From an uncultured virus (IMG/VR IMGVR_UViG_3300008108_005860) (lineage: Duplodnaviria; Heunggongvirae; Uroviricota; Caudoviricetes), in the IMG/VR virus record IMGVR_UViG_3300008108_005860: 64,000 nucleotides of DNA. One strand, 5' to 3'. Shown one piece after another: positions 4,514 to 32,402 of the stretch (position 1 is its first letter; the number at the start of each line of letters is the position of its first letter). The notes under the pieces are model-generated. The model worked only from the letters and a program-made list of their open reading frames with translations. It ran no database searches and was not told where the DNA came from. The translations under genes and the position numbers were made by a program.

Positions 4514-4537
4514 TCACTACTACTATCAGGAAATTTT

Positions 4538-8790: not shown

Positions 8791-8791
8791 A

Positions 8792-16555: not shown

Positions 16556-17232
16556 ATGTTCGTTTGCTATCCTACAGCCAACCCACAGGTGAATATCGAG
16601 ATCTGGGTATCGCAGATGCGCAGGAACTCATTGCGTATTGCGCCCGTGTCAGCAATCCTTCCAATCAACTCAACAGCGAAACATCAGAGAAACTCATCAG
16701 ATACTTGGTCAAGCACCAACACTGGTCGCCACTGGAAATGGTGTCAGCCTGTTGCGAAATCACCACCACAAGAGATATCGCAAGACAGATACTTAGACAC
16801 AGAAGTTTCTCATTCCAAGAGTTTAGCCAGCGATATGCTGACCCTACTCGAGACCTCAGTTTCGTTCGTAGAGAAGCAAGACTGCAAGATACAAAAAATC
16901 GACAAAACAGCATCGCACTTGACACCAATGATGCCAAGCATCGAGAACTGGAACGTGAGTGGCAGGACCAACAACGGGAAGTCATACGAGCCGCACGAAA
17001 CGCCTACAGCTGGGCTGTCACTAACGGCATAGCCAAAGAACAGGCCCGTGCCGTGCTACCCGAAGGCCTGACCGAAAGTAGGCTGTACATGAACGGCACC
17101 TTGCGTTCATGGATACACTTTATTGAACTACGCTCGGGACATGGCACACAGTTAGAACATCAGCAGGTGGCCCGAGCCTGCGCAGAAGTCATCGCTACAG
17201 TATTTCCCTTGACACATGAGTTCGTCAACTGA
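16552..17232 (+). CDS. thyX: FAD-dependent thymidylate synthase
   Basis: HWSPLEM, RQILRHRSFSFQEFSQRY signature, AKEQARAVLP, NGTLRSWIHF. Confidence 0.95.
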   Translation: MNVRLLSYSQPTGEYRDLGIADAQELIAYCARVSNPSNQLNSETSEKLIRYLVKHQHWSPLEMVSACCEITTTRDIARQILRHRSFSFQEFSQRYADPTRDLSFVRREARLQDTKNRQNSIALDTNDAKHRELEREWQDQQREVIRAARNAYSWAVTNGIAKEQARAVLPEGLTESRLYMNGTLRSWIHFIELRSGHGTQLEHQQVARACAEVIATVFPLTHEFVN

Positions 17233-17482
17233 CCTTCATACCTATACTGTGTTTGAATGTTCAATAGGTGATGTAGAAGATCCTGATATCTATGCGGCAC
17301 AACCCATGTACGAATGGCAACAGACCGACGCAGGCAAGTGGGTCATGGAGAATGCTGCGGAAACTCCCAGTTATCACATCGGTGCCGATTACAACACCTA
17401 TGGTTATCGCTGTAGCATTCGTGCCAGTTTTGCAGAACGTCAAGCAGTAGAATACTGCTTACGATTCGTCAAAGAGAAATAG
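17216..17482 (+). CDS. hypothetical phage protein
   Basis: GDVEDPDIYAAQP...GKWVMENA; last + strand gene, 3' end overlaps the convergent gene. Confidence 0.75.
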   Translation: MSSSTDLHTYTVFECSIGDVEDPDIYAAQPMYEWQQTDAGKWVMENAAETPSYHIGADYNTYGYRCSIRASFAERQAVEYCLRFVKEK

Positions 17483-18046
17483 ATCCACCGGCACACATAG
17501 CCTTAGCGTTCCTGCATAAGGCATCACAAAATGGTACAAGAAACTGGGAAATATGTAAACATCGCCAGTTCGAGGCTGTATGCGAGTATAATCAAATTGT
17601 TTTTGTTTTTGTTTATTATCATAGCCTCGATTGGCGTTAGATCTAGGATCGCAGAATATCAACTGTCCTCCTTGGGTGGATTCTTCGGCCAACAGATAAA
17701 ACACACCACTGTAATGACTACCACTGTGATTGTGCAGGATCAAATGATAATTTCCTTGATTTCCAGTAAGCCATGATTTAAACTTATAGGTTTGGAAGTC
17801 TGTGATATGTTTGTCAATGGTATCTACAAGATACTGATCAAAAGCAGGATATACTTCTTGATCGATCCATTGATCAAGTTCAGGTAGATTGAGATCCAAG
17901 ATGTTCTCCTCATAAATTTCTTCGGTTGGCTTGGCAAAATCTACATTGACCATCAGCGCATCCACTACCTGCTGACGTATGTGATCATTCTTCATGGTTG
18001 TATACTGCACAGGTGTTGGATACAGTAGATTCATTCCTGGATTCAT
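17459..18046 (-). CDS. 2OG-Fe(II) oxygenase-like protein
   Basis: HNH...SGVFY...LIFCDPR...GDVYIFPSFLYHFV...R double-stranded beta-helix signature. Confidence 0.82.
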   Translation of the reverse strand: MNPGMNLLYPTPVQYTTMKNDHIRQQVVDALMVNVDFAKPTEEIYEENILDLNLPELDQWIDQEVYPAFDQYLVDTIDKHITDFQTYKFKSWLTGNQGNYHLILHNHSGSHYSGVFYLLAEESTQGGQLIFCDPRSNANRGYDNKQKQKQFDYTRIQPRTGDVYIFPSFLYHFVMPYAGTLRLCVPVDLFLFDES

Positions 18047-18483
18047 AGCATGAATTCTCTTTCAAAATAGTTTCTTATGTCGGGTATCATTCCTTGATCC
18101 ATGTTATTGGGCAAGGCCGCAATGATCTTGATGTAGGTTTCTTTGTCTTGACTGTAGGGAACAAAGTAAGGATCATTGCCGTACAGCAGATCAGGATCAT
18201 CTAGCACAGTTAAAAAATCTTCACCAAATTCTTGATTCAACCATCGAGCATATAAGACAGCAACTGCATAACTTTTACCAGGATATAACCATCCAACTTC
18301 CTGCTCAGTAAAATACTTCACAGCAGTTGACACAACATCAGTGACTATTTCAATGTCAAACTGATTTAGATCGTCACCGTGTTCTTTGGTAAGTCTGTGA
18401 TATACTTCCTGTCTTACTTTCCACTCTTTCATGATATCAAGTGTACTGGCGAGCATACCACTGTATGAGATGTTTGTATCCAT
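18043..18483 (-). CDS. hypothetical protein coupled to radical SAM gene
   Basis: overlaps both neighbours; YPGKSYAVA...LDDPDLLYGNDPYFVPY; exact start uncertain. Confidence 0.7.
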   Translation of the reverse strand: MDTNISYSGMLASTLDIMKEWKVRQEVYHRLTKEHGDDLNQFDIEIVTDVVSTAVKYFTEQEVGWLYPGKSYAVAVLYARWLNQEFGEDFLTVLDDPDLLYGNDPYFVPYSQDKETYIKIIAALPNNMDQGMIPDIRNYFEREFML

Positions 18484-19354
18484 TGCAACTCATGGATATA
18501 TCTCGCACTTCACGCAAGTGTTCGCTTAGACAGCGTCCGTGGAATTCGCAATCACGGCAGTATTCGTTCACACTAACACGTTGTTTTTCTCGTTCACACC
18601 ATTGTTGATATTCTTCAATGGAATCCATTTCTAAGAAATACTCGCGATCATTGATGTCAAATTCCAACACAGCAAATCTACCGCTGGGAGTAATATACAC
18701 GTGATCATCACTGTAACTGTGTCCTTGCCCGTCTAATACCTGTTGTATAAGGGCGGCGTTGACAAACTGGAATTTTTTTGGCGTGGCAGCGGTGAGCCAG
18801 CGTATCACATAGTTTTCAAAATCTTTGTCGGTTATCTGGAGATCATTGGCCTGATTGCGACTATAGGGTTTGATTTCTACTGAACGTAGATTAGGTATGA
18901 GATTGAACATATTGATCATGTAGTTGGGATCCAGTGTGATCAAGTGCGGACTGGCCAGCATGAGCACGCTGAAATCCGAAGAAATCATGGTCATGTTCTT
19001 GTAAACCAAATCATATTTTTCTCTGGCGCTGAAGTCGTAACTGACACTGAGAGAATAGTTAGGATCTTCGGTGATTTGGTTTACTGCGCTAAGGTTTGTT
19101 ATCATGTTGAGATTTTTGCAGTATCGTTTCAAAATCACAGTCATGTCTTCAAAGTACTGTTTAGGCAGCAGGGCCACTTCGCCGCCGTAGACATCAATCT
19201 GATCAATGATGCCATAATGTGCTACAACTTCTTGTAATCTAGACTCCAATTTATCAAGTTTGATTAATTTTTGACTAGACAACTGTCCTTCTGTTAGATA
19301 ACAAAATTTGCAACGGAAGTTACAATAATACCAAGGATTAAGGGATATGTTCAT
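18437..19354 (-). CDS. radical SAM protein with C-terminal Cys cluster
   Basis: CNFRCKFC, YGGE; C-terminal CRDCEFHGRCLSEH...SCNG; ATG 19354 follows TAAATA. Confidence 0.88.
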   Translation of the reverse strand: MNISLNPWYYCNFRCKFCYLTEGQLSSQKLIKLDKLESRLQEVVAHYGIIDQIDVYGGEVALLPKQYFEDMTVILKRYCKNLNMITNLSAVNQITEDPNYSLSVSYDFSAREKYDLVYKNMTMISSDFSVLMLASPHLITLDPNYMINMFNLIPNLRSVEIKPYSRNQANDLQITDKDFENYVIRWLTAATPKKFQFVNAALIQQVLDGQGHSYSDDHVYITPSGRFAVLEFDINDREYFLEMDSIEEYQQWCEREKQRVSVNEYCRDCEFHGRCLSEHLREVRDISMSCNGYKHLIQWYARQYT

Positions 19355-19438
19355 AGGTAAGATATTTAGCGACCGCTCGAGGCAGATCAAAGGTATTTGG
19401 GCAGCATAAGCCACTACCAATGATCACTGATATACTAA

Positions 19439-19537
19439 TCAATATATGTAAGGATCTTGTTTCCTGCTCTGTCTGATCTTGCGTCTATAACGCAATTCGT
19501 TAAGCAGCTTTTGGATAATACGCTTGATTTTTCTCAT
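19439..19537 (-). CDS. small basic peptide (32 aa; not in ORF track)
   Basis: MRKIKRIIQKLLNELRYRRKIRQSRKQDPYIY; overlaps the end of the SGNH-like gene and fills the gap. Confidence 0.55.
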   Translation of the reverse strand: MRKIKRIIQKLLNELRYRRKIRQSRKQDPYIY

Positions 19538-20309
19538 TGAGGTAATCTCTTACAAGTTTAAAAGCATCTGCGTGAGCCTCTTCTGTGAAATGTTCGTCTC
19601 GGCGGGCATAACCGTTGTCTCTGGCCCACTCTACGAAACCTTTCAATGGAGGATAAAAAAACCACGGATCTTGATCAATCATGTTAATCAAGCAATTCAC
19701 GCTGGGATCATCAAAAGTTTTACGGAAAAAAGAGTGAGCCGACGTAAACATATATGGAATGCTGTTTAGTTTAAGGTAGTTCTGTAAAAACACAATCTCT
19801 TTCACAGTGCAGTAATATTCATATACATCATCGCTACCAACATACCTATAGTAGTCTCTAAGAAACTTTATGATATCCTTGTCAAGGTGTGTAAATATTT
19901 TTTGCTTTGATTCATCTGGTCCAGGATAAAGATCCTTACTGTTAACACTGCGCCAAGGCCCGTGTGGCCCTAGAGCGTATCCTTCGGGATCTGTCTTTGC
20001 ATCATAAGGTTTACTCATTGGATCGATAGTAAATTTAAATTCTATGCGATTCAAAAAAGACCAGCTTACCACTACAAAAATATCTTGTGCCCGATTTTGC
20101 TCACAGGCCAAAATAGTTTTTCTAGCAATCGCAGAGTTGCTATTACCTGGATAAGCTGCACAAACATACTGGCGATTCAATGACTTACTAAGCAAAGCAG
20201 GCCACGTGTTCAGACTATAGCTGAAATTGTTACTGGGATTACAATCCAGTAGATCTAATCCATAGGTGAAACTATCGCCGCCAGCTATTAGTATTGGTTG
20301 ATTTGACAT
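19500..20309 (-). CDS. SGNH/GDSL-like protein
   Basis: GGDSFTYG block I, PGNSN, C-terminal DEHFTEEAH. Confidence 0.6.
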   Translation of the reverse strand: MSNQPILIAGGDSFTYGLDLLDCNPSNNFSYSLNTWPALLSKSLNRQYVCAAYPGNSNSAIARKTILACEQNRAQDIFVVVSWSFLNRIEFKFTIDPMSKPYDAKTDPEGYALGPHGPWRSVNSKDLYPGPDESKQKIFTHLDKDIIKFLRDYYRYVGSDDVYEYYCTVKEIVFLQNYLKLNSIPYMFTSAHSFFRKTFDDPSVNCLINMIDQDPWFFYPPLKGFVEWARDNGYARRDEHFTEEAHADAFKLVRDYLNEKNQAYYPKAA

Positions 20310-20346: not shown

Positions 20347-21420
20347 CTACGCTGTCTCATATTCTTTTACATATTCTGTTGGTTCCAAGTCCACACCATT
20401 GGCTTCAATGATGTCGGCAGCAAGAGTTTTCATTTTACTACAATGGCGTTCGACCAAATTGTACCGTTTGAGATCGGTTATGGTTTTGCGACAACCATTG
20501 CAGATATCAAACATAGGGCAACTATAACAACTCTGCTTGAGAGTCTGAAGATCGGGTTGATCTTTCAGTATCCTGATTATTTTTTTGCTATTCATCTCTT
20601 GCTCAAAATCTATAGCATATTCTTTGTCGTCGCCAAAGGCTCCGCAACTGTAGTAATCTCCGGATGGCTGTAGAGTCCTAATACCTGCATCACAATCTCT
20701 GTTTTGTGGACATATGGTTGCTTCACCGCGCAGTCGTTTCATCATGGTCTTGGTACTGTGTTCCCAAGGATATAATTCTTGTCGCCAGATTTCGAGATAT
20801 ATCTCGTAGATATCTGCTAGCACGAAAGGACGACCTTGCTGGCCCATGATGATGTTACGAAACTTCACAGGAGGTCCCGAACTAAAGGCATAGTTTAACT
20901 TGCACTCCACGTTCATCTTCTTGGCCAGTCTCACATTGTCGAGAGCACGATCTGCATTTTCTTCGGTTATTACTGTGATAAAGTCTGGCCTATATCCACA
21001 ATAGCGTAGCATGGCGTCGCTGCATTTCCAAAAGTCTTCTTCTGAAAATGGGGTAAGATCACCTTTGAGACGTCCTCCACCATATTGGAAGCTGGTGGTT
21101 ATGCCCATACGCTCATGATTGAATAGATCTACCCACTTTTGGGGATTCTTGTAAAATGGCCAAAGATTAGTGGTAAAACTAATAGAGGTATCATACTCAT
21201 GTAAGTCCAACCAGTCAATGATCTTCCAGTAGTATGCTGGCGACATCATGAGTGGATCGCCACCGTTGACTATGATTGTTTTGGTGTCAGGAAAACGTTC
21301 AAGAAATCTAAAAATTTGATCGTGCCCAAGTTCAGCACTTTTGTCGTCGGTGATGTTGGTACTGGAGCAAAACGTACATTTGAAATTGCAACTCTCAGTT
21401 GGTTTGATAATTAGATCCAT
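20347..21420 (-). CDS. radical SAM/SPASM-type protein
   Basis: IKPTESCNFKCTFC, NGGDP; CPQNRDC...YSCG...CYSCPMFDICNGC...HC auxiliary cluster. Confidence 0.9.
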   Translation of the reverse strand: MDLIIKPTESCNFKCTFCSSTNITDDKSAELGHDQIFRFLERFPDTKTIIVNGGDPLMMSPAYYWKIIDWLDLHEYDTSISFTTNLWPFYKNPQKWVDLFNHERMGITTSFQYGGGRLKGDLTPFSEEDFWKCSDAMLRYCGYRPDFITVITEENADRALDNVRLAKKMNVECKLNYAFSSGPPVKFRNIIMGQQGRPFVLADIYEIYLEIWRQELYPWEHSTKTMMKRLRGEATICPQNRDCDAGIRTLQPSGDYYSCGAFGDDKEYAIDFEQEMNSKKIIRILKDQPDLQTLKQSCYSCPMFDICNGCRKTITDLKRYNLVERHCSKMKTLAADIIEANGVDLEPTEYVKEYETA

Positions 21421-21514: not shown

Positions 21515-21803
21515 TTGGCTGTTCAAATCCATATTTGTTGATACATTCAGCAGCATACTCAGTGTCACCGATACTGTCGACGCCTTTGATTTGGCAGATC
21601 TGCCTATTGACTTCACGTATACGTTCTTTGACATATGCACCATAAGGTTCCATGTTGTTGATCATGCGCATATACATATCGTACAGTTCAGGATCGTGTT
21701 GGAAATCGTGTAGTTTAGTGATCCAGACATTGTACAACTCTGCGCAAAGATCTCTTTCTTTGCTATATTCTAGTTTGAGTTTTAACAGTTCATTGAGTTC
21801 CAT
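21504..21803 (-). CDS. hypothetical helical protein (99 aa)
   Basis: overlaps the upstream oxygenase stop. Confidence 0.7.
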   Translation of the reverse strand: MELNELLKLKLEYSKERDLCAELYNVWITKLHDFQHDPELYDMYMRMINNMEPYGAYVKERIREVNRQICQIKGVDSIGDTEYAAECINKYGFEQPNAE

Positions 21804-22326
21804 TTTTCAATCCTACACAAAAATCAAAACTGGCCACTCGTCGACGTATCTTTGTATCATCGGCTCTGTGCCAAAATCCGCGAAGATTATTGACCATGAA
21901 AACATCACCTGCCCGGGGCTGGAATGTGGCAGTCTGTTCCTGGCCTTGTAACACTCCCCATTTGAAGTTTATGCTGCCACCTGTTTCAGCATGGGTGTCA
22001 TCAAAATAATACAAAAAGAAAATGTCATAGTTTTCAAACATATCTGTGTGCCAACCTTGATTGTCACGATCCACGCCATCCCAAACTATGAACTTGTTGT
22101 ATTCAGCCGCGGGCCATTCGGGATCTATGTACTTGGTTTTCAAATACAAAGCCAAGGTTTCTAATCTCTTGGCCAGTTCGGCACTGACATCTTGCTTGCC
22201 GTTATCTCTAACACGTTCTTCCACATTCAACAGTTTGAATTCATCGATGTTGATCAATGCCAAGGCGTCGGGCTCACTGAGTTGTACAAATCCTTTGCTA
22301 TAGATATCTTTAATGTTGTAATACAT
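21790..22326 (-). CDS. 2OG-Fe(II) oxygenase
   Basis: WHTD...FLYY...GG...PRAGDVFMVNN...WHRA...RR (HxD...H triad plus 2OG Arg). Confidence 0.82.
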   Translation of the reverse strand: MYYNIKDIYSKGFVQLSEPDALALINIDEFKLLNVEERVRDNGKQDVSAELAKRLETLALYLKTKYIDPEWPAAEYNKFIVWDGVDRDNQGWHTDMFENYDIFFLYYFDDTHAETGGSINFKWGVLQGQEQTATFQPRAGDVFMVNNLRGFWHRADDTKIRRRVASFDFCVGLKNGTQ

Positions 22327-24040
22327 GATTCATGACTCCGTTCATTATCAAAGGTTTGTTGGCGTTCAACATTTCCTCTATCACAAGCACCCTAAACCTA
22401 TTGCCTAATTTCCTTATGCTACGCGGTTCAGTATCGGGATTGAAAATATCTGCTATCATATCATGTATGGGGCCGTAATCATCCAACTGTTGGATAACCT
22501 TGTAGGCTATTCTAGCACACTCCTTGGGTGTTGTATAGTCTTTTAGTGGATCAAAAAAATGTTCTAACACATAAGGTCCTGCTTGATTCATAAACCACAT
22601 TTCTAACATTTCTTCCCTGGTAAAACTATAGCAACTCCTGATAGTTTTAAAGTAAGTGCGTTTGTTTTTGTACAGGCTGTTCCAATTGTCTACACCGTCT
22701 TCGTCGATGATGTCGCTGTAGACTTCTACAGTTTCGATCTTGTATTTAATTTTATAAACATCGCTGTTGAGTTCGCTATCGGGCAGAAACATATAGTCAT
22801 GTCTGAAACTGGACCAGCCGCTGTTATTGCCCACTGTGGATCGCGCTTGGAAGTTATACATGATCTCAAATTCTGTGTAGAAATCATCAATGGTTGACCC
22901 GGGCATGGCCAGGATCAATTCCACGGCAGGAGTAGGAAAGCCCTGTTCTCTACAGCGTTGATTGATGTGTCTGCTGAGTTCTATTTTATCTTCTAAACTA
23001 AGATCCACACGATTGGCCACTTTCATGGCTTCGTCGCTGACGCTTTGTATACTGACCGTAGGCACCACACTGATAAACTCGGTCTCTCCCCACATATCAG
23101 TACCCCCTTCGCTGGCACTGTGCCTTTCTGGACCACGTCCCACAACATCAAACCAAGCATCTACTAATCGTTTTCTTCTAGTGAGGTCACGACTTTTTAC
23201 TGTGCTGATGTCTGTGAGATTGAATTTGTTTTGCCATGCAAACCGAAACAGTTCTATATCACGTTGCTCGAACACACCAAAGTTTGCATCGGTGAGATAA
23301 GCATCGCGGAATCCCGCGGCTTTGAGCGCCAGGATGTCTCGCTTGACCACTGCTTCTGATTTTTTGTATATTTTAGTGCCAATGCCACCGCCCCATTCAC
23401 AGAACACACAACTGTATGGACAACCCCTAGTGGACTCTAGCACTATAAAAGGCTCTATGCGTTGGGACCTGGCATATTCTACTATTTCACTCAGATAAGG
23501 CAAATGGTCTTCGTAGACGCTGTAGTCATAGTCTATGAGATATGAACGTTCTCGTTCGCTGTTCAATTCCCAACTGATGTCTGCTTTGCGTGCCCGACCT
23601 TGGTTGTCAAAATAACTGTTGATAAAGTCTTCAATAAATGTTTCGCCGGGCTTGGTAGGGCGGCAAATATAATCATAGTAGGTTCTGGTGGCCAAAAACT
23701 CTGGTTCGTTGGTGCCAATGTGCGGACCGCCCAGGATAGTTATCTTGCCTTGTGCTTGGGCTATCTTGGCTATTTCATCACAGATGGTATAGTTCCAAGC
23801 ATAACTGCTAAACATGATCGCATCTGCTTGGGCAATTTCTTGATAGACTTCTTTATAAGTCTCATATCGATCGAACTTGTAAGGAGCCGGCAACCACTTG
23901 ACACGATCAGCATACTTGCCATTGCGCTGATAATGACTTTGACACAGCAGGTAAGTGACGTTGTTGGCCAGGCTCCAATCCGCATGGGGTGGATTTACAA
24001 AAGCCAGGGTTAGTGAATTATGTTGTTTTTGCATCTGCAT
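22310..24040 (-). CDS. cobalamin-binding radical SAM protein (class B methyltransferase-like)
   Basis: N-terminal B12 domain (FVNPP...FSSYAWN...ILGGPH), ESTRGCPYSCVFCEWG, LTDANFG; start 24040 or 24034. Confidence 0.88.
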   Translation of the reverse strand: MQMQKQHNSLTLAFVNPPHADWSLANNVTYLLCQSHYQRNGKYADRVKWLPAPYKFDRYETYKEVYQEIAQADAIMFSSYAWNYTICDEIAKIAQAQGKITILGGPHIGTNEPEFLATRTYYDYICRPTKPGETFIEDFINSYFDNQGRARKADISWELNSERERSYLIDYDYSVYEDHLPYLSEIVEYARSQRIEPFIVLESTRGCPYSCVFCEWGGGIGTKIYKKSEAVVKRDILALKAAGFRDAYLTDANFGVFEQRDIELFRFAWQNKFNLTDISTVKSRDLTRRKRLVDAWFDVVGRGPERHSASEGGTDMWGETEFISVVPTVSIQSVSDEAMKVANRVDLSLEDKIELSRHINQRCREQGFPTPAVELILAMPGSTIDDFYTEFEIMYNFQARSTVGNNSGWSSFRHDYMFLPDSELNSDVYKIKYKIETVEVYSDIIDEDGVDNWNSLYKNKRTYFKTIRSCYSFTREEMLEMWFMNQAGPYVLEHFFDPLKDYTTPKECARIAYKVIQQLDDYGPIHDMIADIFNPDTEPRSIRKLGNRFRVLVIEEMLNANKPLIMNGVMNHVLQH

Positions 24041-25037
24041 ATCTAAACGCTTCTGCAAATACACAACCATCTACATCTCTTATGAGATGTTTGTATTCGT
24101 TCTTGATAAAGCAAGTGAAACTACAACGTGAATAAAACTCACAACTGAGACAATCTTTTTCTTCCAAGAATATCTGTATGATCTTGCTAGAACCAAGTTC
24201 TTGGCTGCGGGGATCTTTTAACAGCACAGTGCCGCTGCAGCCCTTGGGGGATGATCCATCTGTCATGATAGTGTGGCTGCTGCCTCTAGTACAAGACATT
24301 TTCTTTTGTTGATTTTGATTGAGAAAGTACGCGATGTTGTTGCAGCGAGGATACTTGTCAATCATGAATCGATAGTATTCTAATAACTGGCTTTCCCGAG
24401 GCATGAGTGCTGGATTAAAATTCTTTCCAGGCAAAAGTTGATCCCAATCTGTTTCAAATGTTTGATACAGATAATCATAATAGGCATCACCTGCTATAAT
24501 TTTCTCGATGTTTTGTCGGGTGATCACAGTTGAAATCAAATGTACATAGGGTTGGAACTTTTCAATGTTGCGTTTGAATAGTGCCAGTTCCTGTGCGTTG
24601 AATCTACCAGCCGGATCGTAACTTACATTCATGGTCAATTGATTGTTGCGACAAAAGTCCAAGACTGCGTCAATTTGTTCATACACCAGATTGGTAACAA
24701 AAAGAAAATCTACAGTTTTTCCGCTGGCCACATTGTGTTTTACAGTGTCAATAAATTCCTGATACACCTCAATGAATCCTTGTTTGATCCAATGATCCTG
24801 GAACAGTTCTCCGCCCATGATATGTATTACAAACTGTTGCTTGGGACTGGTATTGATGTAATCTACTACCAATTGAGACTTGCCAATGATACTATCTCTG
24901 TTGGCGCCAGTGGTATCATCATGATTCTGAGGACAAAAAACACACTTCATATTGCAGTGCTCAAAGAACAGCACCACGACTTCTACATAGTCGATGATTT
25001 TGTTCTCAATGATTTTATAAAAGTCTAGATCACTCAT
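24018..25037 (-). CDS. radical SAM protein with C-terminal Cys cluster
   Basis: FEHCNMKCVFC, MGGELF; C-terminal CLSCEFYSRCSFTC...C. Confidence 0.88.
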   Translation of the reverse strand: MSDLDFYKIIENKIIDYVEVVVLFFEHCNMKCVFCPQNHDDTTGANRDSIIGKSQLVVDYINTSPKQQFVIHIMGGELFQDHWIKQGFIEVYQEFIDTVKHNVASGKTVDFLFVTNLVYEQIDAVLDFCRNNQLTMNVSYDPAGRFNAQELALFKRNIEKFQPYVHLISTVITRQNIEKIIAGDAYYDYLYQTFETDWDQLLPGKNFNPALMPRESQLLEYYRFMIDKYPRCNNIAYFLNQNQQKKMSCTRGSSHTIMTDGSSPKGCSGTVLLKDPRSQELGSSKIIQIFLEEKDCLSCEFYSRCSFTCFIKNEYKHLIRDVDGCVFAEAFRYADAKTT

Positions 25038-25094
25038 GGCAATATTGGTCCAAAATACTTAGCCAATATTATCAGTGGTAATGGCAATAAAAGG

Positions 25095-26207
25095 TCAGGT
25101 GCAACCGTTGATGACAAATGGTCTCAGTAACTCACGGTTGTTTTTTCTAGCGTCGTTTATGTAATTAAACAATGTAGCATTGATTTTATGTGACTCGCTA
25201 GACGCAATAAATGGCAAAACATCCATGACACGATCTCGATACTGACTCCATTGTGCCGGATTATTGATGTGTTCTATGCCGGGGAAGAATCCAATGGGTA
25301 CTTCGTTCAAAGGCAAGCCTTTGAGATCTCTAAAAACTTTGATCACTGTTTTTGACAATTTGGCAATTTCAGATTCAGATACTCTGCGCCAGTTAGCATC
25401 AAAACTAACTGTAGAAACATCTCTTGGGAAAAACCTATCGTCAAACAACAAGCGTGTGGATTCGGCTTGCTGCAAAATTCCAATCATTTCCAAAATTGGA
25501 CGATCCGAAAGATTCAAGACGCTTTTGGTTTTTTCTGACGTCAGCGTGTCAACTATGTGCTCTCTGGCTTCCAACGCACTCAAGTAGGCGTGCTTGATAC
25601 AAAAGCCTTTGATCTGTTCACTGAATATGTCTTCGCATTGACCATTGTAACTGTATGTTGCCAATACAAATTCTATGCTTAGATCGGCTCTTTTTTCAGC
25701 AAAAAAACTATAGAAATCAACAGGGTTGGTTTGTCCCTTGAAAAATTCAGCAGATACTTCGGCTTCTGTAATGGCAGCTTTATTTTTAAGGCGTGCATGA
25801 TTTTGAACAGGACTAGAGAATGTAACATTACTACTTAACAGGCTTTGTCTAACAGTGTAGAAAGCCAAGATCTGATAGATGTCCTTGACCGTGGCCAAAG
25901 GCAATGCAGCACGGAAAAAATTAGTTCCTATTTTGACAAAACTGTCTCGATCTGCGTACACTGTCACTGGCGCATTTAACTCGTCTTGTTTTGATCCAAG
26001 GAAATTCAAGAAACTCAGATAGTCTGGATAGGTTTTGCCGGCGCCAATCACACCTTCCACGCTTTCATTGTAATCTAGCAGTTGGCCAACAGAGGCAAAT
26101 TCACCTCCCATTGGGTGACCAAAATCCTGACTCAATACCACACGATGTTGTGCGGTATCCAGCGTTTCATCTAAAGCTAGATATACTCTTTTAAAGAGAT
26201 GTAGCAT
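25095..26207 (-). CDS. hypothetical protein (370 aa) in radical SAM cluster
   Basis: long ORF coupled to the upstream gene; no motif recognised. Confidence 0.8.
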   Translation of the reverse strand: MLHLFKRVYLALDETLDTAQHRVVLSQDFGHPMGGEFASVGQLLDYNESVEGVIGAGKTYPDYLSFLNFLGSKQDELNAPVTVYADRDSFVKIGTNFFRAALPLATVKDIYQILAFYTVRQSLLSSNVTFSSPVQNHARLKNKAAITEAEVSAEFFKGQTNPVDFYSFFAEKRADLSIEFVLATYSYNGQCEDIFSEQIKGFCIKHAYLSALEAREHIVDTLTSEKTKSVLNLSDRPILEMIGILQQAESTRLLFDDRFFPRDVSTVSFDANWRRVSESEIAKLSKTVIKVFRDLKGLPLNEVPIGFFPGIEHINNPAQWSQYRDRVMDVLPFIASSESHKINATLFNYINDARKNNRELLRPFVINGCT

Positions 26208-26922
26208 CTTGTTGTTCCTTAAGTTCTTGTGTGGCCTGACTCAACAATTCTTGCCACTGTTTACTATTTATTTTTTCTTCTAATATGCCCCAGGTGATCA
26301 AAAACATGGGATTGTTGTTATTGGCCCAGAACGAGTAAAGATTACGCCCTTTGAACATATTTTCACTAAAATAGCGGCTGTAGTATCGCAGATTAGATGC
26401 GTCCAAGATCTGATAAAAATAGAAAAATTCTTCGTTTTTCAATAGACTTATCCAATTGATTCCTTCAATGGAGTCTGTGTCATCTTCCGGATAATTTTTG
26501 ACTTCTTGTTTGGCTAGTTCGTCATTGATAGCATAGGTGTTGAACAGAACCAGGCTATCCAATTTCTGTACCCAGCATTTGACCAATTCTATATTTTCCT
26601 GTATGAAGTTGGTAAAATATCCTGGCTGTATCAGGCCCTTGTATTCAAACAGCACGCCCATGGCTGCACGTTCCAGCGTGGGAATATTGACCAGCGTGGT
26701 GCTGGCAAAGTAGGTTTGCAATAGTTTGGCATGATCGGGATCGTTAAAATCTTCAATGTCTATATCGCAATTGAGATCCAAATTACCAAGATAAGTTAGG
26801 AGTTTTTGTTCCTGCAGTTTGGAATTTTTATAGTCTATTAGATATCTAGTGGATTTGTCACTGAAATAAATTTTCAAATTTTCCAATGATATGGGTGCGG
26901 TGGTAGTGATTACATTTGACAT
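26191..26922 (-). CDS. hypothetical protein (243 aa) in radical SAM cluster
   Basis: ATG 26922 is one nt after the stop of the CH-tag gene; no motif recognised. Confidence 0.8.
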   Translation of the reverse strand: MSNVITTTAPISLENLKIYFSDKSTRYLIDYKNSKLQEQKLLTYLGNLDLNCDIDIEDFNDPDHAKLLQTYFASTTLVNIPTLERAAMGVLFEYKGLIQPGYFTNFIQENIELVKCWVQKLDSLVLFNTYAINDELAKQEVKNYPEDDTDSIEGINWISLLKNEEFFYFYQILDASNLRYYSRYFSENMFKGRNLYSFWANNNNPMFLITWGILEEKINSKQWQELLSQATQELKEQQDATSL

Positions 26923-26923
26923 T

Positions 26924-27667
26924 TTATCTTCTTCCTCTTGAATTGTGGCAGCTGGAATGGCACTGGGCATGACAGGTGCTGTATGACATTGATATAGTGC
27001 CAGCAGCAGTGTATGCCGAGGACCAATTGCTCATCAATGCAGCCCAATATGTGTTGAATGCCACTGCTGCCGCACCTCCCAAGGTTCCATTTGTGCTGGC
27101 ACTAATCACACGATCAGTGGCGAAATTTACATTAGTGCCGGGATTGGTTATGTTACCTGCGGATAATGCATAGCCAGAAGTTACCAAGGCCTTGCCTGAA
27201 TCTGTGTAAGTGCCTGCAGGTGCTATATCACCTGTGACTACGGTTATGGCCTGTACACGTCTATAGATAAGGTATCTTTGTAGTTCGCCGTAAAAAATCT
27301 GGCTAAATCCTGAGAAGTTGCCTGCAGATATGGCCTGTGACGCACTGGCTGGATATGTGAGACTTACATTGGCAGTGGCAGATATGATCTGCCCACCAAC
27401 ATTGGCAATGTTGCTGTCTGTGAGCACATTGGCCACTTGATTTGATGTAGGCGCAAAAATACCTAAACCGGCATAGTAGGCATTGGCTGCAGCTCGATAA
27501 GCTGCAGGCACAGTTCTGGTAGGGTAACTACCGGTGTAGAATAACACATTGTTGTTGGGACTGTTGGCATTGGTACTGGCCAAATAGTCATTGAGAAAAC
27601 TCTGGATTATACTTTGCGCATTGCCCGGATTTCGTGATCTTACTAAATCACCGGTGGAGATGGTCAT
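26924..27667 (-). CDS. virion-like protein with C-terminal CHAQCHSSCHNSRGRR (putative modification substrate B)
   Basis: Ala/Gly/Ser/Thr/Asn-rich body; the only Cys and His residues are in the last 16 aa. Confidence 0.8.
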   Translation of the reverse strand: MTISTGDLVRSRNPGNAQSIIQSFLNDYLASTNANSPNNNVLFYTGSYPTRTVPAAYRAAANAYYAGLGIFAPTSNQVANVLTDSNIANVGGQIISATANVSLTYPASASQAISAGNFSGFSQIFYGELQRYLIYRRVQAITVVTGDIAPAGTYTDSGKALVTSGYALSAGNITNPGTNVNFATDRVISASTNGTLGGAAAVAFNTYWAALMSNWSSAYTAAGTISMSYSTCHAQCHSSCHNSRGRR

Positions 27668-27669
27668 GC

Positions 27670-28437
27670 TTATCTCCTGCCGCGACTGTTATGGCAGCTG
27701 GAGTGGCACTGAGCGTGACAAACTGTTATACTGACATTAGTGATGGGTCTATTATTGAAAGATTTTTTAAGACTGTTGAAATAGTTATTGATACCCCAGA
27801 CCTCTCTATTGGTGGGATTGGCAGTGTTTTCATTTCCTGCATAGGTGGCATTGGCAATGCTACCATCAAATGTATCTGTGTCAGTGTGTCCGCGCGGAGT
27901 GGTAGGATTTACAAAGCTGGAGGAAAATTGTGCAGTTGAAAAACTTGCTTTGAAAGGTCCGTACACAGATGGTGGTGGTGCAATATCTCCAGTGGTGATT
28001 TTTGTAGCTCTACACCAGTTCACAGTTAAAAAATTCCTGGCCGATTGATACAGCACCGCAGTTGAACTGGGCAGTCCGTTGCCCGAATAGTGGCTGGCAA
28101 AAATAACATAATCTACACTGGGATCACTTGGATATGTTTTTTTAAAATCTCCGGGCACAGCATTGGCGGTGGCCCAGGCATTGCCTGTTGAAGAACCTGA
28201 TCTTCCATTGCCGCCAAATACAGCAATCCATTGTGTATCACCTGTGGGATATTTTGCGGGCAATGTGCCCGAGGCAGGCCCCCAAGCAATGCCATCAGCA
28301 AAATTCACTGTGCTGTTGGCCACATAAGCTACACTGGTGCCGTTGCCCTGTGGGCCAGTGGCGCTGACGGCATCATAGCCAAAAGCGCTGATGAGATTAG
28401 AAGCATTGATAATGTATCCGGACTGTAATTGAGCCAT
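27670..28437 (-). CDS. virion-like protein with C-terminal CHAQCHSSCHNSRGRR (putative modification substrate A)
   Basis: same composition and identical C-terminal 16-mer; shares internal TGDIAP with its neighbour; preceded by TATAAATA. Confidence 0.8.
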   Translation of the reverse strand: MAQLQSGYIINASNLISAFGYDAVSATGPQGNGTSVAYVANSTVNFADGIAWGPASGTLPAKYPTGDTQWIAVFGGNGRSGSSTGNAWATANAVPGDFKKTYPSDPSVDYVIFASHYSGNGLPSSTAVLYQSARNFLTVNWCRATKITTGDIAPPPSVYGPFKASFSTAQFSSSFVNPTTPRGHTDTDTFDGSIANATYAGNENTANPTNREVWGINNYFNSLKKSFNNRPITNVSITVCHAQCHSSCHNSRGRR

Positions 28438-28442
28438 AATAC

Positions 28443-28450
28443 TATTTATA
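28443..28450 (-). promoter_or_regulatory. T4-type late promoter consensus TATAAATA
   Basis: exact TATAAATA on the - strand 5 nt upstream of ATG 28437; related TAARTA motifs precede several other genes. Confidence 0.65.
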
Positions 28451-28456
28451 CAAAAT

Positions 28457-29530
28457 TTAAACTGGGACTATTTTAAACATTTTGGCGGGAATTTTGTAGG
28501 AATCTTGGGCTGTACCATACTTTAGTTCTCGCATGAGGCTCTTGGGCGCACCGCAAACGTCGCCTTGCCAGCTCAATTGATGACAATCTGATCCGCATTT
28601 GTCAAATACATCACAGTCATAACACAGGGTATTCCTGTGCGATTCGCAGGCTATGTTGTTTATGCGCTGCGGGTGGGTCAGGACATCTTGTATGCCCATG
28701 GAAATATGTCCAAAATTTTCTTCGGGCGCAGCATTGGGACAGCCACCTATTGTTCCATCCGCATTGATGGTAAAAAGTTTTTGTTCGCAATCTCTGCAGA
28801 AAGTTCCTGCTCCAGTAATGTTACGTTCGAACTTGCTGTAGATATTTTCCATGAACTCATTGGCAAACCACGATCTTGCATCGTATTGCTGTATCTGACG
28901 GTGCATTTTTAAAAACCATTGATCCTGATCTAGATTTCGGGGGAAAATATCTGGATGCTGTCTAGCATTGCCGTTGTTGGTCAAGCGTTCTAGATCCATT
29001 TCTTGAACACCTAAATCTCGCACCCAGCGCAGCAGTTCAATGGGTTCTATATTGATAGTATCCCGTGTGACGCTGATAAACAGTTTTATGGACACTCCTA
29101 GGCTCAGCAACCTTTCAACGTTTCTGCGCCACAATGATTCTTGTCTAACATTGGCAAATCTAATAGCCGGATCCCAACTGGTGCCTATGCGTCGACCCAA
29201 TGGACCCAAGATGAAATCTTCAATGTCTTGATTTAGTTTAAAGGTTAGATTACTGGTGCAGCCAAATGAAGCAACATCAAAAGTATCACGCAATTGATCA
29301 TATACACGGATCATATCTTGCACTGGGGCCAGAAATGGTTCGCCACCGTGGAATTCATAGTGCATGGTGTGCCCTGCGCCCACGTGCTGGTGGAAACGCT
29401 GGAAAAAATCAATCACGTGATCTGGATTCCAGAATATCTTACGCCCTTGGGTACCAGATGTAAAACAATGCCGGCAATTTAAATTACAGGTTTCAGTGGT
29501 CTTGAGATAACTTAGATAATTCATTGACAA
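28457..29530 (-). CDS. radical SAM/SPASM protein (peptide-maturase-like)
   Basis: LKTTETCNLNCRHC, FHGGEPFL; FCRDC...INADGTIGGCPN...CYDCDVFDKCGSDC...C SPASM-like domain. Confidence 0.9.
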   Translation of the reverse strand: MSMNYLSYLKTTETCNLNCRHCFTSGTQGRKIFWNPDHVIDFFQRFHQHVGAGHTMHYEFHGGEPFLAPVQDMIRVYDQLRDTFDVASFGCTSNLTFKLNQDIEDFILGPLGRRIGTSWDPAIRFANVRQESLWRRNVERLLSLGVSIKLFISVTRDTINIEPIELLRWVRDLGVQEMDLERLTNNGNARQHPDIFPRNLDQDQWFLKMHRQIQQYDARSWFANEFMENIYSKFERNITGAGTFCRDCEQKLFTINADGTIGGCPNAAPEENFGHISMGIQDVLTHPQRINNIACESHRNTLCYDCDVFDKCGSDCHQLSWQGDVCGAPKSLMRELKYGTAQDSYKIPAKMFKIVPV

Positions 29531-29994
29531 TCTATCAAGTAAGATTCTAAGCCAAAACTCAGCATGAGACTGTCTTCCTGGTTGACAGCTTCATGTGGTA
29601 CATTGGCTGGAATCAACAGTGTATCACCTGCTGTGAGTGTGCGCCATTCTCCGTCCACAATCATATTTTTGGTGCCTTCAATCACTTCTAAAAATACTGG
29701 CATGGGATCTGAGTGTGAGCCAAAACTCTGCGAACCCGGAAAGGCTCTGTAAGCGTGACAAGTCACTGGCCCAACATGATCATACATGATTTTCAAACCA
29801 GCACATTTTATAGCCAACTCGCGAGAGTAGCGTTCTAGGCCTTCGAGTTTGATGGCATGACCATTGTAAAGTTTTGATAATTCAGCGTGATTGTGAACAA
29901 GATAGTGTCCACCATTTTTTATCACGCTGATCAAATTATGCCTATAAACAAACTCTCGGCCAATAAAGGCTTTGAATTCGTTTATGCTATTCAT
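29521..29994 (-). CDS. JmjC/cupin-type oxygenase (ROXA/YcfD-like)
   Basis: CHAY...SFGSHSD...VIEGTK...LTAGDTLLIPANVPHEA: HxD...H triad and conserved Lys. Confidence 0.75.
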   Translation of the reverse strand: MNSINEFKAFIGREFVYRHNLISVIKNGGHYLVHNHAELSKLYNGHAIKLEGLERYSRELAIKCAGLKIMYDHVGPVTCHAYRAFPGSQSFGSHSDPMPVFLEVIEGTKNMIVDGEWRTLTAGDTLLIPANVPHEAVNQEDSLMLSFGLESYLIDCQ

Positions 29995-29996
29995 CG

Positions 29997-32402
29997 TTAC
30001 AGTATAACAGCCTCAACCATTGCTTCAGTACCAGGTTCTGCATAAGCATTATGTAGTGCTATGGCAATCGGTACATCATTATTTCTGGCACATACACCAG
30101 GAACGTCACTGGGACCCAGTTTATCACCTTTATGGACCACGCCCGTGAATCTAACTGGCACGCGGCCGCGCAAGGCCACAGGAACACCGCCCACCAATGA
30201 CATATTCATTAGATATGCAGGATTGGTCGATATCACTCCCAGGGGATGATCTTGATTGGTACACTCAGTAATTTCGGCATCTCCGCCTACGGTTACCAAG
30301 GTTCCAGCAACGTATTCTCTATCTGCTAGATAAAGTTCGGCCAAGTCAGCATAACGTGCATATGTAGCGATACCAATAAAATTGTTGGCTGTGATATTAC
30401 CGCCACTGTCTCTCAGTGCAGTGGTATTTGCTGTGCCTAGTATGGTAGCAGGATATACTGTGCTACTAAAATATGTGCCCACAGCGTTGCCTACCGCACC
30501 ATTGGCGTGTAACATTCCACCAATGGCTCCACGATATAGTCCAGTGTGATAACCACCTGTGCCTGTGATATAAAGATTGCTTACCGCAGCACCGTTGAAG
30601 CTGCTGTTAGAAACGGCACCATCGGCAAAGATATTACCAGTGGCGCGTAGATCTCCTAGGCTGCCACCAACGTTGGGATAATCGCTGGTTATATTCAAAC
30701 TGCGATTGAGTACCCAGCGCTGGGCATCGTAGCCCGGACTGCCCGAACCCGAGGCTTGCACCACTCCTGTGAACTTCAATTGGTTACTTGCACCAACGTT
30801 GGCTGCATTGCCTAAAAGTATGCCAGCGCCAGTTAATCCAGTAATGATATTGGCAGTGACTGTGTTGTCCGACAATGTGATATCTTTGTCAGCAGTGGTA
30901 ATGGTTTCTACGTTGGTTTCAACTGTGTTGCCCAGCACATAAAGATTACCCTGGATGCGCACATCTCTGTAAAAATCATACAGCACATTGGCTGTGAGAT
31001 TGGTAAATGTCAGGATGTCGCCTACTCCACCGGGAACTGTGCTGGTGCCCCAGGTATGGATGATACCCACATTGCCGTTACCAAGATTGTTTGGAGGACG
31101 TCCAATGTATACAGCATTGTTGAAACTACCGGTGCCATTGGCACCCACGATTCGGATATTGCCTTCGCCTGTGGTAGTGTTACCGTCACCTACATAGATT
31201 CCGCCGTCGGATGGTATGGCTATGTCTGTGATGTTGGCTGCAGGCAAGTCGCCTAGCAAAGCGCCAGACAAGTTACCAAAAAATGTTTTGGCATATACCG
31301 CATTCAATGCTGTGCCAGTATTGGGATTCTGTCCCAGATTGACATTGCTGTATCCAGTGAATCCGTTGCCAAAACTTACAATGATGTCGCCACGTACAGC
31401 CAAGGCAGCGTTGCCAATAGCATTGTTAGATGCATCAAAGGCTGCTTCTTGTATGCCCAGGCCTTTGACATAGGGTTGATATTTGCTGCTGGGCTGTATC
31501 ACACCATATATCTGTGTGTTGGTATTGCCCATGGTATTAAATATGGCAGAATTTCCAGCCACAGATGCGAGATAACTGGCTCCATAGGCTGTGATGCCTT
31601 GACTTGTGGTAATGCCGTTGCCAGCTATCTGTGTAAATGTTCCAGGATTAGCACTGTTGCCTACAGCAATATAATTTAACAATCCACCGTTATATGCGCC
31701 CAACTGCGTAATATTAGCCTGCACTCCATTAAGATTGCCATAGATGCCTTGTCCGCGTACATCCAGGAAGGATGTGCTGTTGTTGGCACCATTGCTGAAT
31801 CTACCAACGTACATACTGTCAGTGATATCTGCAGTGTTACCATATAAATTGTTGACATCGATGCGGCCGTCGCCGGTGTTGGTTGTGAAGTTGCCTACGT
31901 TGGCATTGATCACAGCCACATTTACTGTGTCTTGACGTGTAAGCGGGCCAATGGCTTGCCAGCCCGGATTTCCAAATGTGGTTTTTGTAGTGTCTCCACT
32001 GTACACTATCAACTGCGCAATGTTGCTTGCGCTGTCAACATACATCCATTGATCACCCTTGGCAGGTGCGCTGGGCGCATTGGCCGAGCGTGCTGGCATG
32101 ACTCCTTGCCAGGTAATGGCATTTCCAGTATATGTTGCTCCGTTGGGTATGTTGCCCTGTGTGGCGATTTTTAACTGTGTGTTGGTTAGATCATACCAAA
32201 GTTGTCCTGTCAATGCGTTGGTGGGACGATTGTTGGCTGTGGCTGCACCTGATTCCAGTAAGCGTATAAAATCCTGATCTACGAACTGTCCATAGTTGGC
32301 AAAGTCGCGACCAATCAGCGTCATGGTTGACGTTTGGTTAATGGTTCCATCCGCTATGTTAGCGAATATTGCACCTCGGGTTAGCGTAACTGAATAAGGC
32401 AT
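29997..32402 (-). CDS. tail fibre/spike with C-terminal intramolecular-chaperone (autoprocessing) domain
   Basis: N-terminal LIGR..YG...GQLWYD attachment module; G/N/T-rich beta repeats; C-terminal YADLAE...GVISTNPAYLMN...VALRGRVPV. Confidence 0.82.
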   Translation of the reverse strand: MPYSVTLTRGAIFANIADGTINQTSTMTLIGRDFANYGQFVDQDFIRLLESGAATANNRPTNALTGQLWYDLTNTQLKIATQGNIPNGATYTGNAITWQGVMPARSANAPSAPAKGDQWMYVDSASNIAQLIVYSGDTTKTTFGNPGWQAIGPLTRQDTVNVAVINANVGNFTTNTGDGRIDVNNLYGNTADITDSMYVGRFSNGANNSTSFLDVRGQGIYGNLNGVQANITQLGAYNGGLLNYIAVGNSANPGTFTQIAGNGITTSQGITAYGASYLASVAGNSAIFNTMGNTNTQIYGVIQPSSKYQPYVKGLGIQEAAFDASNNAIGNAALAVRGDIIVSFGNGFTGYSNVNLGQNPNTGTALNAVYAKTFFGNLSGALLGDLPAANITDIAIPSDGGIYVGDGNTTTGEGNIRIVGANGTGSFNNAVYIGRPPNNLGNGNVGIIHTWGTSTVPGGVGDILTFTNLTANVLYDFYRDVRIQGNLYVLGNTVETNVETITTADKDITLSDNTVTANIITGLTGAGILLGNAANVGASNQLKFTGVVQASGSGSPGYDAQRWVLNRSLNITSDYPNVGGSLGDLRATGNIFADGAVSNSSFNGAAVSNLYITGTGGYHTGLYRGAIGGMLHANGAVGNAVGTYFSSTVYPATILGTANTTALRDSGGNITANNFIGIATYARYADLAELYLADREYVAGTLVTVGGDAEITECTNQDHPLGVISTNPAYLMNMSLVGGVPVALRGRVPVRFTGVVHKGDKLGPSDVPGVCARNNDVPIAIALHNAYAEPGTEAMVEAVIL

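Follow-up and report, generated by a model that had tools for sequence, protein, structure and literature searches.

Enzymes of the radical S-adenosylmethionine (rSAM) type are well known for the maturation of short secreted peptides, and their action on whole proteins, such as CrpA and HxsA, is newly emerging. The HXS antiphage system is reported to consist of an effector, HxsA, with five His-Xaa-Ser repeats, two rSAM enzymes, HxsB and HxsC, and HxsD; HxsA is matured by HxsB and HxsC, through which an SHRSS motif is shifted by +8 Da, and the His and Ser of the motif are described as essential (PMC13128918). In Methanococcus voltae, the rSAM/SPASM enzyme CrpC is reported to form ranthionine (thioether) links on the Cys-rich protein CrpA (PMC13692751), and HaaB and HtkB are described as His-cyclophane synthases (PMC11499958). 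Here we analyse a 64,000-nucleotide stretch of DNA from an uncultured tailed virus (IMG/VR record IMGVR_UViG_3300008108_005860; "the window" hereafter), in which five rSAM genes and up to three oxygenase genes surround two genes, tagA and tagB, whose products end in the same 16-residue Cys-His tail, or tag. We show that tagA and tagB are anciently diverged paralogues within a large, previously undescribed family encoded in tail-fibre modules. We further argue that the tail is probably a substrate of the surrounding rSAM battery, in a protein-level modification of a fibre-associated virion protein that would resemble how RiPPs, peptides that are ribosomally synthesized and modified post-translationally, are matured; our confidence in any particular chemistry is much lower.

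The tag locus resembles HXS in having a whole protein with tandem H-x-S units, and HxsA, as described, is matured by more than one co-encoded rSAM enzyme, as we propose for the tag proteins. It differs in that the tag repeats have a period of 4, with an invariant Cys before each His, and are followed by R-x-R-R at the exact C-terminus. In addition, the tag cassette matches no HxsA, HxsB, HxsC or HxsD family (scores are far below cut-off, or there is no match), and it belongs to a phage fibre module and virion and contains more enzymes (five rSAM enzymes in the window), whereas HxsA is reported to be a bacterial periplasmic defence effector. The CrpA/CrpC pair, as published, offers a parallel in which a SPASM-type rSAM enzyme is encoded beside a Cys-bearing protein substrate that undergoes RiPP-like modification at the protein level. 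The pair differs in its substrate, in belonging to archaea and in how many enzymes take part, and the likeness to the tag system is drawn at the generic rSAM/SPASM core. A literature search, with subscription journals and bioRxiv supplements outside its reach, found no paper describing the tag or its cassette; in the passages considered here, jumbo-phage genome papers merely list cupin, rSAM and 2-oxoglutarate (2OG) oxygenase genes (PMC8066314, PMC5468394, PMC11898562).

Two divergent paralogues with one tail

The genes tagA (247 aa; 26924..27667) and tagB (255 aa; 27670..28437) are adjacent open reading frames (ORFs) on the minus strand, and both terminate in CHAQCHSSCHNSRGRR followed by TAA. 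The tail and stop of tagA occupy positions 26924-26974, and the identical tail of tagB lies at 27670-27720. A first-pass annotation, made from the letters of the window alone, had described this tail as identical in protein sequence with nine codons differing synonymously, and retranslation of both copies bears this out: 9 of the 16 sense codons are changed (12 of 51 nt), all silently, including Ser TCA/AGT and Arg AGA/CGC. The same annotation had called the protein bodies divergent apart from a common TGDIAP, which agrees with an identity of 30% between the whole proteins and the presence of TGDIAP in both. Six-frame translation of the whole window gave 15 C-x3-C-x3-C matches, and the CH-repeat tag was found in tagA and tagB alone; judged from these sequences, the shared tail is far beyond chance. 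The window tags contain HSS and HNS, plus HAQ. For tagB, 23 metagenomic homologues were found, and PHROG 35144 matches it solely over the last 51 residues.

Conservation of the tail across the family

Searches of cultured phages by tblastn gave no match with tagA and, with tagB, a match through the last 29 residues only. The matching protein is a 186-aa hypothetical protein of the Ralstonia jumbo phage RSL2 that ends in CHSSCHTSCHGSRGRR, and its gene has a cupin-rSAM pair on one side and more rSAM and oxygenase genes on the other. IMG/VR was then scanned with a degenerate DNA pattern encoding CHxxCHxxCHxxRGRR, which returned at least 121 stretches. Among the matches listed, a stop codon directly follows RR in all 131 unique motif-bearing viral ORFs, and the free fourth position of the three successive repeats is Ser in 84, 72 (with Asn in 16 more) and 84 of the 90 unique ORFs that come from loci 5 kb or longer. 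The consensus is thus (C-H-x-S/N)x3-R-x-R-R at the exact C-terminus, and most family tags hold three H-x-S units.

The tail was also recovered in a test that is independent of the tag itself. Loci were found through homologues of p259, the protein encoded directly after tagA, using a 7-sequence alignment; 78 of the 79 loci have an ORF that ends in (CHx[S/N])3-R[G/S/N/A]RR just before p259, and in the sole locus lacking the tail the sequence ends 69 nt upstream. A profile of the whole body (A4, of 94 sequences) was run against 1.84 billion representatives, with clusters at 50% identity. It matched 895 clusters when the threshold was E<=1e-3, and 695 when it was E<=1e-10. The canonical tail ends 136 of the 149 best representatives of this search; five more carry a one-residue insertion before RxRR, and the remainder look truncated or degenerate. 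A tail that varied among homologues would have spoken against the first-pass annotation, and the tail is instead kept: C, H and R-x-R-R do not vary, and S or N occupies the fourth position.

Family proteins range from about 125 to 310 aa. Without the tail their bodies split into several BLAST clusters, and a hidden Markov model (HMM) of the main tag-protein family matches the tagA body over its full length (E 3e-7), so the clusters form one superfamily. Variant tails were seen in a 4.3-kb contig filed under a Dysosmobacter isolate (L232) and in metagenome-assembled genomes of Bacteriovoracia (L233 and L241), where a doubled tag, CHTSCHDSCHSN-VV-CHASCHDSCHSARGRR, occurs once and the other tails have four CHxS units rather than three.

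Selection on the tail and on the body

The tag body is the fastest-evolving member of the cassette across loci, with a median identity of 0.25, as against 0.34 for p259 and 0.48 and 0.62 for the rSAM enzymes R4 and R2. The tails behave differently. In 24 other distinct pairs of tandem paralogues, the tags show on average 7.0 synonymous codon differences and only 0.83 residue differences, and nearly all of the residue differences fall at x positions 3, 7 and 11. Strong selection on the peptide, which had been proposed from the window pair, is therefore confirmed as purifying selection, with synonymous codon change exceeding residue change.

Comparison of the window with a relative (L061) places the duplication in time. 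Orthologous bodies are 37-58% identical and paralogous bodies 22%, so the tag duplication is older than the split between the window and this relative. Both window tags read CHAQCHSSCHNS and both tags of the relative read CHSSCHSSCHGS; paralogue tags are synonymously different at 9 and 12 of 16 codons, and orthologue tags at 8 and 6 of 13. Because the synonymous divergence of the paralogues is no lower than that of the orthologues, the x residues have changed in step in both paralogues, and nothing points to recent homogenisation of the DNA. Gene conversion as the source of the identical window tags was rejected, as 9 of 16 codons differ, which is as much as between orthologues. The earlier view that the duplication is not recent holds for the same reason, paralogue tags being as synonymously diverged as orthologues, with bodies 30% identical. 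The parallel change of x residues is the pattern that co-adaptation to one shared partner per genome would give. The trend extends to 14 genome pairs, in which tags differ at 36 residues in all between orthologues and at 20 between paralogues (orthologue differences being greater in 7 pairs, smaller in 3 and equal in 4); it is modest, and the pairs are few and non-independent.

The cassette in the window and in other phages

On the minus strand of the window, from 32402 down to 17459, the gene order is FIB, CUP, R4, tagB, tagA, p259, p370, R3, B12R, OX2, p99, R2, p269, R1, p146 and OX1. FIB (29997..32402) is an 801-aa fibre protein with a C-terminal intramolecular-chaperone domain (Pfam Peptidase_G2 IMC domain, 1.5e-5, slightly below cut-off; PHROG tail fibre), and homologues are present in 58 of 81 viral loci. 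It is followed by CUP (29521..29994), a cupin of the JmjC_2 (ribosomal-oxygenase) type (Pfam Cupin_2 9e-12, JmjC_2 3.5e-9), which directly precedes R4 in most loci, and by R4 (28457..29530; Pfam Radical_SAM), the rSAM/SPASM enzyme immediately upstream of the tag genes. Directly after tagA lies the conserved protein p259 (26191..26922; phrog_20767, 4e-58). Its listed ORF extends to 26970, which sets the start 16 codons too early and makes it run over the tagA tail in a different frame; since homologues align from residue 17 (Met17), the start is probably the Met at 26922, two bases past the tagA stop. The conserved protein p370 (25095..26207), with homologues in 32 of the 81 loci, has no family match in Pfam, NCBIfam or PHROG.

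R3 (24018..25037; phrog_1802) is an rSAM protein with a C-terminal Cys cluster, and B12R (22310..24070; Pfam B12-binding and Radical_SAM) is a methyltransferase-like, B12-binding rSAM protein that matches the NCBIfam KedN5-type model at 3e-22, below cut-off, and has homologues in 20 of the 81 loci. OX2 (21790..22326) is 2OG-Fe(II) oxygenase-like (Pfam 2OG-FeII_Oxy_3, 9.5e-5, below cut-off), and a small ORF, p99, separates it from R2 (20347..21420; SPASM TIGR04085), the rSAM/SPASM enzyme that is the most conserved cassette member. R1 (18437..19420; phrog_1802, 3e-40) is a further rSAM enzyme; all four of R1-R4 fall in phrog_1802 and are thus paralogues. The cassette ends with the conserved small protein p146 (18043..18483; phrog_20737, 4e-50; homologues in 50 of the 81 loci) and the 2OG-Fe(II) oxygenase OX1 (17459..18046; Pfam 2OG-FeII_Oxy_5, 7e-17; phrog_81). 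Between R2 and R1, a 269-aa ORF, p269 (19500-20309), has a weak DUF6071 match and no homologue in any of the 81 related loci. By eye, its N-terminus resembles a GDSL/SGNH-type hydrolase motif.

The order recurs in the 81 viral loci as FIB-CUP-R4-TAG-p259-p370-R3-(B12R)-R2-R1-p146-OX. Loci with at least one BLAST match numbered 65 for R4, 72 for R3, 58 for R2, 54 for R1, 58 for p259 and 49 for CUP, counts that are rough, as the rSAM paralogues cross-match and many of the loci are incomplete. The position is that of a tail-fibre module, between fibre/baseplate genes and the remaining cassette. Carriers are uncultured large phages and cultured jumbo phages, the latter comprising the Ralstonia RSL2/RSF1 group, Burkholderia FLC6, FLC8 and S13, Pseudomonas pPa_SNUABM_DT01 (tail CHTSCHTSCHSARGRR) and Agrobacterium Atu_ph07 (tail CHSSCHASCHNSRSRR); Sinorhizobium Phosso is a further cultured carrier. 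In every annotation examined, the tag proteins of cultured phages are listed as hypothetical.

A second cassette type was found in six loci (L002:3195-10718; L020, L026, L027, L065, L068), in which two tag proteins of ~126 aa come right after FIB and are followed by a run of ORFs of 340-420 aa. Five of these ORFs in L002 have CX3CX2C and a C-terminal Cys cluster, and none of the five matched an rSAM model at the thresholds used. R3 and R1 lie downstream in this locus, and related loci also show R2 and R4. The functional tie between the tag and its neighbouring enzymes that the first-pass annotation had supposed is thus supported by strict synteny with rSAM/SPASM genes, in phages and, as described below, in Bdellovibrionota. 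A PADLOC search of the cassette returned generic viperin-like rSAM core matches and one candidate-family match for B12R, and no listed defence system.

Occurrence in Bdellovibrionota

When one genome for each prokaryote species was scanned with the pattern, 47 stretches matched, 39 of which are real tails; the other 8 were rejected as chance matches in repeats or wrong frames, mostly in high-GC genomes. Twenty-seven of the 39 real tails belong to records that carry Bdellovibrionota lineage names, in some cases on contigs of 1.3-2.8 Mb, and most of the others have the appearance of binned phage contigs and share the FIB-led order. The cassette of three chromosomal loci of Bdellovibrionota is flanked by housekeeping genes, namely those for LspA, LolA, an SMC-like protein, serine dehydratase and an Mrp/NUBPL ATPase. 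Two of the three adjoin a fibre-like protein with a Peptidase_S74 (endosialidase chaperone) domain (L224:2172-3410 and L217:5080-6204), so the link to chaperone-bearing fibres holds in phages and Bdellovibrionota alike; the second locus also has two further ORFs with CX3CX2C. A tag-protein homologue was found in 9 of 301 sampled Bdellovibrionota genomes. The cassette is therefore patchy in this group, a distribution that suggests transfer.

Enzymes of the cassette and their partners

The CX3CX2C motif that binds the 4Fe-4S cluster used with SAM is present in R1, R2, R3, R4 and B12R. Among 50 R4 homologues it is invariant, and of the C-terminal Cys residues 7 are invariant and 1 is nearly so. 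In R3 the motif is at residue 28, with 8 Cys in the last 40% of the protein, and in R1 it is at residue 33, with 5 C-terminal Cys. Against SPASM model TIGR04085 (cut-off 27 bits), R2 passes with 28.2 bits and R4, at 23.8, is slightly below. The best NCBIfam match of R4 is PapB-type NF047865 (46.8 bits against a cut-off of 340, E 2e-12, residues 9-318 of 357), and that of R2 is DynA-type NF041298 over its full length (49.5 bits against 450, E 3e-13). From the invariant motifs, the SPASM match of R2 and this best full-length likeness to the peptide cross-linkers PapB and DynA, the enzymes look active.

Matches to other maturases are weaker. R3 scored 30.4 bits against HxsB (cut-off 370) and R2 28.4 against HxsC (cut-off 267.9); no match to HxsD was found in the window, and the tag proteins match no NCBIfam model. 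The tag shares a period-4 Cys repeat with the CXXX-repeat system, from which it differs in that R4 reaches only 25 bits with the maturase model TIGR04115 (cut-off 350), over residues 10-68 only. Models of anaerobic sulfatase maturases gave 39.5 bits for R2 and 35.2 for R4 (cut-off 349), and a sequence search of the PDB matched R2 to anSME over the N-terminal 78 residues only and gave no match with R4. Anaerobic sulfatases carry the target motif C/S-x-P/A-x-R, and a motif of this type is absent from the tag. By sequence, the R enzymes are members of the rSAM/SPASM class and of no described family, and because the maturase scores lie so far below the cut-offs the chemistry cannot be read from homology.

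The comparison with RiPP cross-linking enzymes can be drawn at several levels. R4 and R2 align over their full length to PapB and DynA, with CX3CX2C and C-terminal Cys clusters, and the tag offers residues of the kind that are linked, namely Cys and a His with another residue two positions on. The tag system differs in lacking a RiPP recognition element (RRE) and a short leader-core precursor, and its scores are ~1/10 of the cut-offs; the substrate would be a folded protein of 125-310 aa, with a tag that is invariant, not variable.

For the partner protein p259, Pfam, a PDB profile search and the Atlas were all empty; its predicted structure has a predicted local distance difference test (pLDDT) of 84.6 and found no fold match, with a best Foldseek E of 0.38 and a best VIA Z of 4.7, the latter confined to residues 1-57. 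An origin of p259 as a degenerate rSAM protein was considered and rejected, at an hhalign probability of 0.2%. A complex prediction for R4, SAM, three 4Fe-4S clusters and residues 185-247 of tagA, which include the tail, scored 0.01, a value that weighs on binding in neither direction.

Predicted structure of tagA and virion location of one family member

The AlphaFold2 (AF2) model of tagA has a pLDDT of 74 and a predicted template modelling score (pTM) of 0.71, and shows an alpha/beta fold with a long helix. In the model a beta-strand leads into the tail, which is predicted as a short, low-confidence helix, free at the surface. Comparison with the PDB gave no usable match, at a best E of 0.65 in Foldseek and a best Z of 3.3 in the wide VIA-align search, and Atlas leads for tagA, all <0.9 and with baseplate-like cluster names, were set aside. 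Some small proteins encoded after tail-fibre genes, such as gp38 of T4/T2 and Tfa, act as fibre chaperones or distal adhesins. Tag proteins resemble them in gene position after a fibre gene, in a fast-evolving body, in the occurrence of duplicates and in having one member in a virion; they have no Pfam, NCBIfam, PHROG or fold match of this kind, with a model of moderate confidence (pLDDT 74). No gp38/Tfa-type protein is known to have a Cys-His tail or a linkage to rSAM genes.

Evidence on virion location comes from Agrobacterium phage Atu_ph07, purified virions of which were analysed by electrospray ionization tandem mass spectrometry, with results considered here for the rows of Supplementary Table S5 from Gp57 up (PMC6102473). 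In these rows Gp170, a hypothetical protein of 31.89 kDa, is identified by 8 unique peptides with 35.16% coverage (PMC6102473). The computed mass of the Atu_ph07 tag protein, 31.894 kDa, equals this listing. Gp170 was detected in gel bands 1-9 with its peak in band 1, the top of the gel; band 1 is the peak for proteins of 75-139 kDa, and other proteins of 29-32 kDa peak in bands 7-8 (PMC6102473). The fibre-position protein gp176 is listed among the virion proteins, and the rSAM proteins gp165, gp168 and gp171 and the p259 homologue gp169 are absent from the same rows (PMC6102473). One family member, Gp170, is thus a virion protein that, in the data given there, migrates far above its mass after boiling in sodium dodecyl sulfate (SDS). 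Membership of the virion and of the fibre module is accordingly drawn from gene position together with Gp170, the virion evidence being that of Atu_ph07 and the window being known from its genes.

The shift of Gp170 may reflect tail disulfides, non-reducible links or an SDS-stable oligomer. The only Cys residues of the Atu_ph07 tag protein are the three in its tail, and the loading buffer, as described, lists no reductant (PMC6102473). These data bear on a reading in which the tail is an unmodified metal site: its three Cys and three His, alone or in a trimer, would bind Zn, Fe, Cu or Fe-S and so staple or oligomerise a fibre-associated protein, with the rSAM enzymes acting elsewhere. Cys and His are classical ligands, the tag bodies are poor in Cys (91 of 136 family representatives have all of theirs in the tag), and the tag genes lie in a fibre module; the short tail fibre of T4 is reportedly a phage fibre with a metal-binding trimeric fold. 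A surface-free tail such as the AF2 model predicts would suit such a site, and an SDS-stable or disulfide-linked species of high mass in Atu_ph07 would fit an oligomer. A metal site alone leaves unexplained the near-invariant Ser/Asn at the fourth position, the invariant R-x-R-R and the strict C-terminal placement, as well as why multiple rSAM genes accompany the tag without a break in both phages and Bdellovibrionota and why the x residues change together in the two paralogues of a single genome. We regard it as unlikely.

The presence of the body of Gp170 in virions, at 35% coverage in those rows, argues against a second alternative, that the body is a long leader from which a modified 16-residue core is cut off as a free peptide, metallophore or redox cofactor. 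The invariance of the tail and its core-like C-terminal position do resemble precursors of the cofactor type, such as those of PQQ and mycofactocin, which have invariant cores, and the combination of several rSAM enzymes, oxygenases and a B12-dependent rSAM enzyme resembles heavily tailored RiPP pathways. Such a "leader", at 110-290 aa, folded and the fastest-evolving part, would be the opposite of RiPP leaders. Moreover, the genes are embedded in a fibre module, and no protease or exporter was recognised among the window cassette proteins in Pfam, NCBIfam or PHROG. Excision of the tail therefore seems highly improbable.

The virion data weigh similarly on a role of the tag protein as an accessory of the enzymes. 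rSAM enzymes require a reductant and a supply of Fe-S, and a Cys/His-rich tail that is always co-encoded with rSAM genes could bind Fe-S, making the protein an electron donor or cluster carrier and leaving the fibre or a small molecule as the true substrate. A conserved body would be expected of such a protein, yet the bodies are the most variable part of the system and are often duplicated, and in the Atu_ph07 table it is the tag protein that is found in virions and the enzymes that are absent from the rows from Gp57 up. We give this possibility very little credence.

Wider context of the window

The window has a G+C content of 46% and comes from a T4-like myovirus. Its minus strand also encodes baseplate gp25, a gp6-like wedge protein, a gp5-like hub protein and a 6033-aa ORF, and its plus strand carries genes of nucleotide and sugar metabolism. 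Among the latter, a block at 3586-11274 encodes NAD synthetase, two nucleotide-sugar epimerase-like proteins and an aminotransferase. Thymidylate synthase is at 16552-17232. The 6033-aa protein is encoded by a single minus-strand ORF (33196-51297) directly upstream of the fibre and cassette genes; ORFs of ~1200-2200 aa occupy this position in relatives, and in Atu_ph07 there is a 13.3-kb "T4-like structural protein" gene.

The nearest virus record, a 127,758-base fragment rated 33% complete, contains 100% of the sampled words of the window, and the only tags present in it are those of tagA and tagB. From its length and rated completeness, the genome is inferred to be several hundred kb. Positions 25000-30000 of the window are nearly whole (0.90-1.00 of sampled words) in contigs of 20 sequencing runs from 15 studies, dated 2017-2025. 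These runs bear freshwater, lake water or "fungus" metagenome labels, 12 of them are marked as possible sources, and none is recorded as RNA.

Discussion

From the conservation of the tail, the synteny, the intact catalytic motifs and the virion location in one phage, we infer that the tail is modified, which residues would be changed and what the resulting module would do. In the mechanism we propose, R4, R3, R2, R1 and B12R, aided by the JmjC cupin and the 2OG oxygenases, would install covalent changes on the finished protein. These would be thioether links at Cys, links from His to the beta-carbon of Ser in each CHxS unit, or both, with possible C-methylation by the B12-dependent enzyme and with the cupin and oxygenases possibly hydroxylating Arg or His. 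The handle would be formed by the R-x-R-R end together with the beta-strand that precedes the tag. The product would stay attached to a virion protein working with the neighbouring fibre and would not be released, and the end product would be a rigid C-terminal module, possibly one that holds metal or forms cross-links.

Several points weigh against modification of the tail. The case for it rests wholly on gene neighbourhood and conservation; three Cys and three His would also be expected of an unmodified metal site, and the cassette enzymes could act on the fibre or on another target. All matches to curated thioether and cyclophane maturases are at ~1/10 of cut-off or less. The cluster motif begins at residue 11-33 in R1-R4, which leaves no room for an N-terminal RRE, and no PqqD-type match was found in Pfam or NCBIfam; nor was a recognition protein found, p259, p370 and p146 being without a recognisable fold or family. 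The comparison of paralogue with orthologue tags draws on few genome pairs, which are not independent of one another. Finally, the top-band position of Gp170 in the published gel could reflect plain disulfides of the tail, which would mean free thiols and not thioethers.

A broader and more speculative reading extends modification of the tail to the occurrence of the cassette in both phages and predatory Bdellovibrionota. The two would share a device in which a battery of paralogous rSAM enzymes, five in the window and more in other cassette versions, and oxygenases convert the (CHxS)3-RxRR tail of a fibre-tip protein into a rigid cross-linked module. This would be a constant "business end" that attaches to, or cross-links at, the Gram-negative envelope, with the variable body adapting to the host. 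The module itself might be a protein-derived metal or cofactor centre, or a constrained strand like those of darobactin and dynobactin. We consider this extended picture doubtful as a whole.

The family comprises ~900 clusters with a nearly invariant 16-residue target and multi-rSAM cassettes, and its carriers include jumbo phages of plant and human pathogens as well as predatory bacteria. If the tail is modified, viruses would be applying chemistry of the RiPP type to their own structural proteins, and the tag with its enzymes would be a compact, portable system for protein cross-linking and would point to a tool for Gram-negative envelopes shared by phages and bacterial predators. Should the shared device prove true, it would be the first instance of a virion protein that rSAM enzymes mature, and its RiPP chemistry at the protein level would be new.

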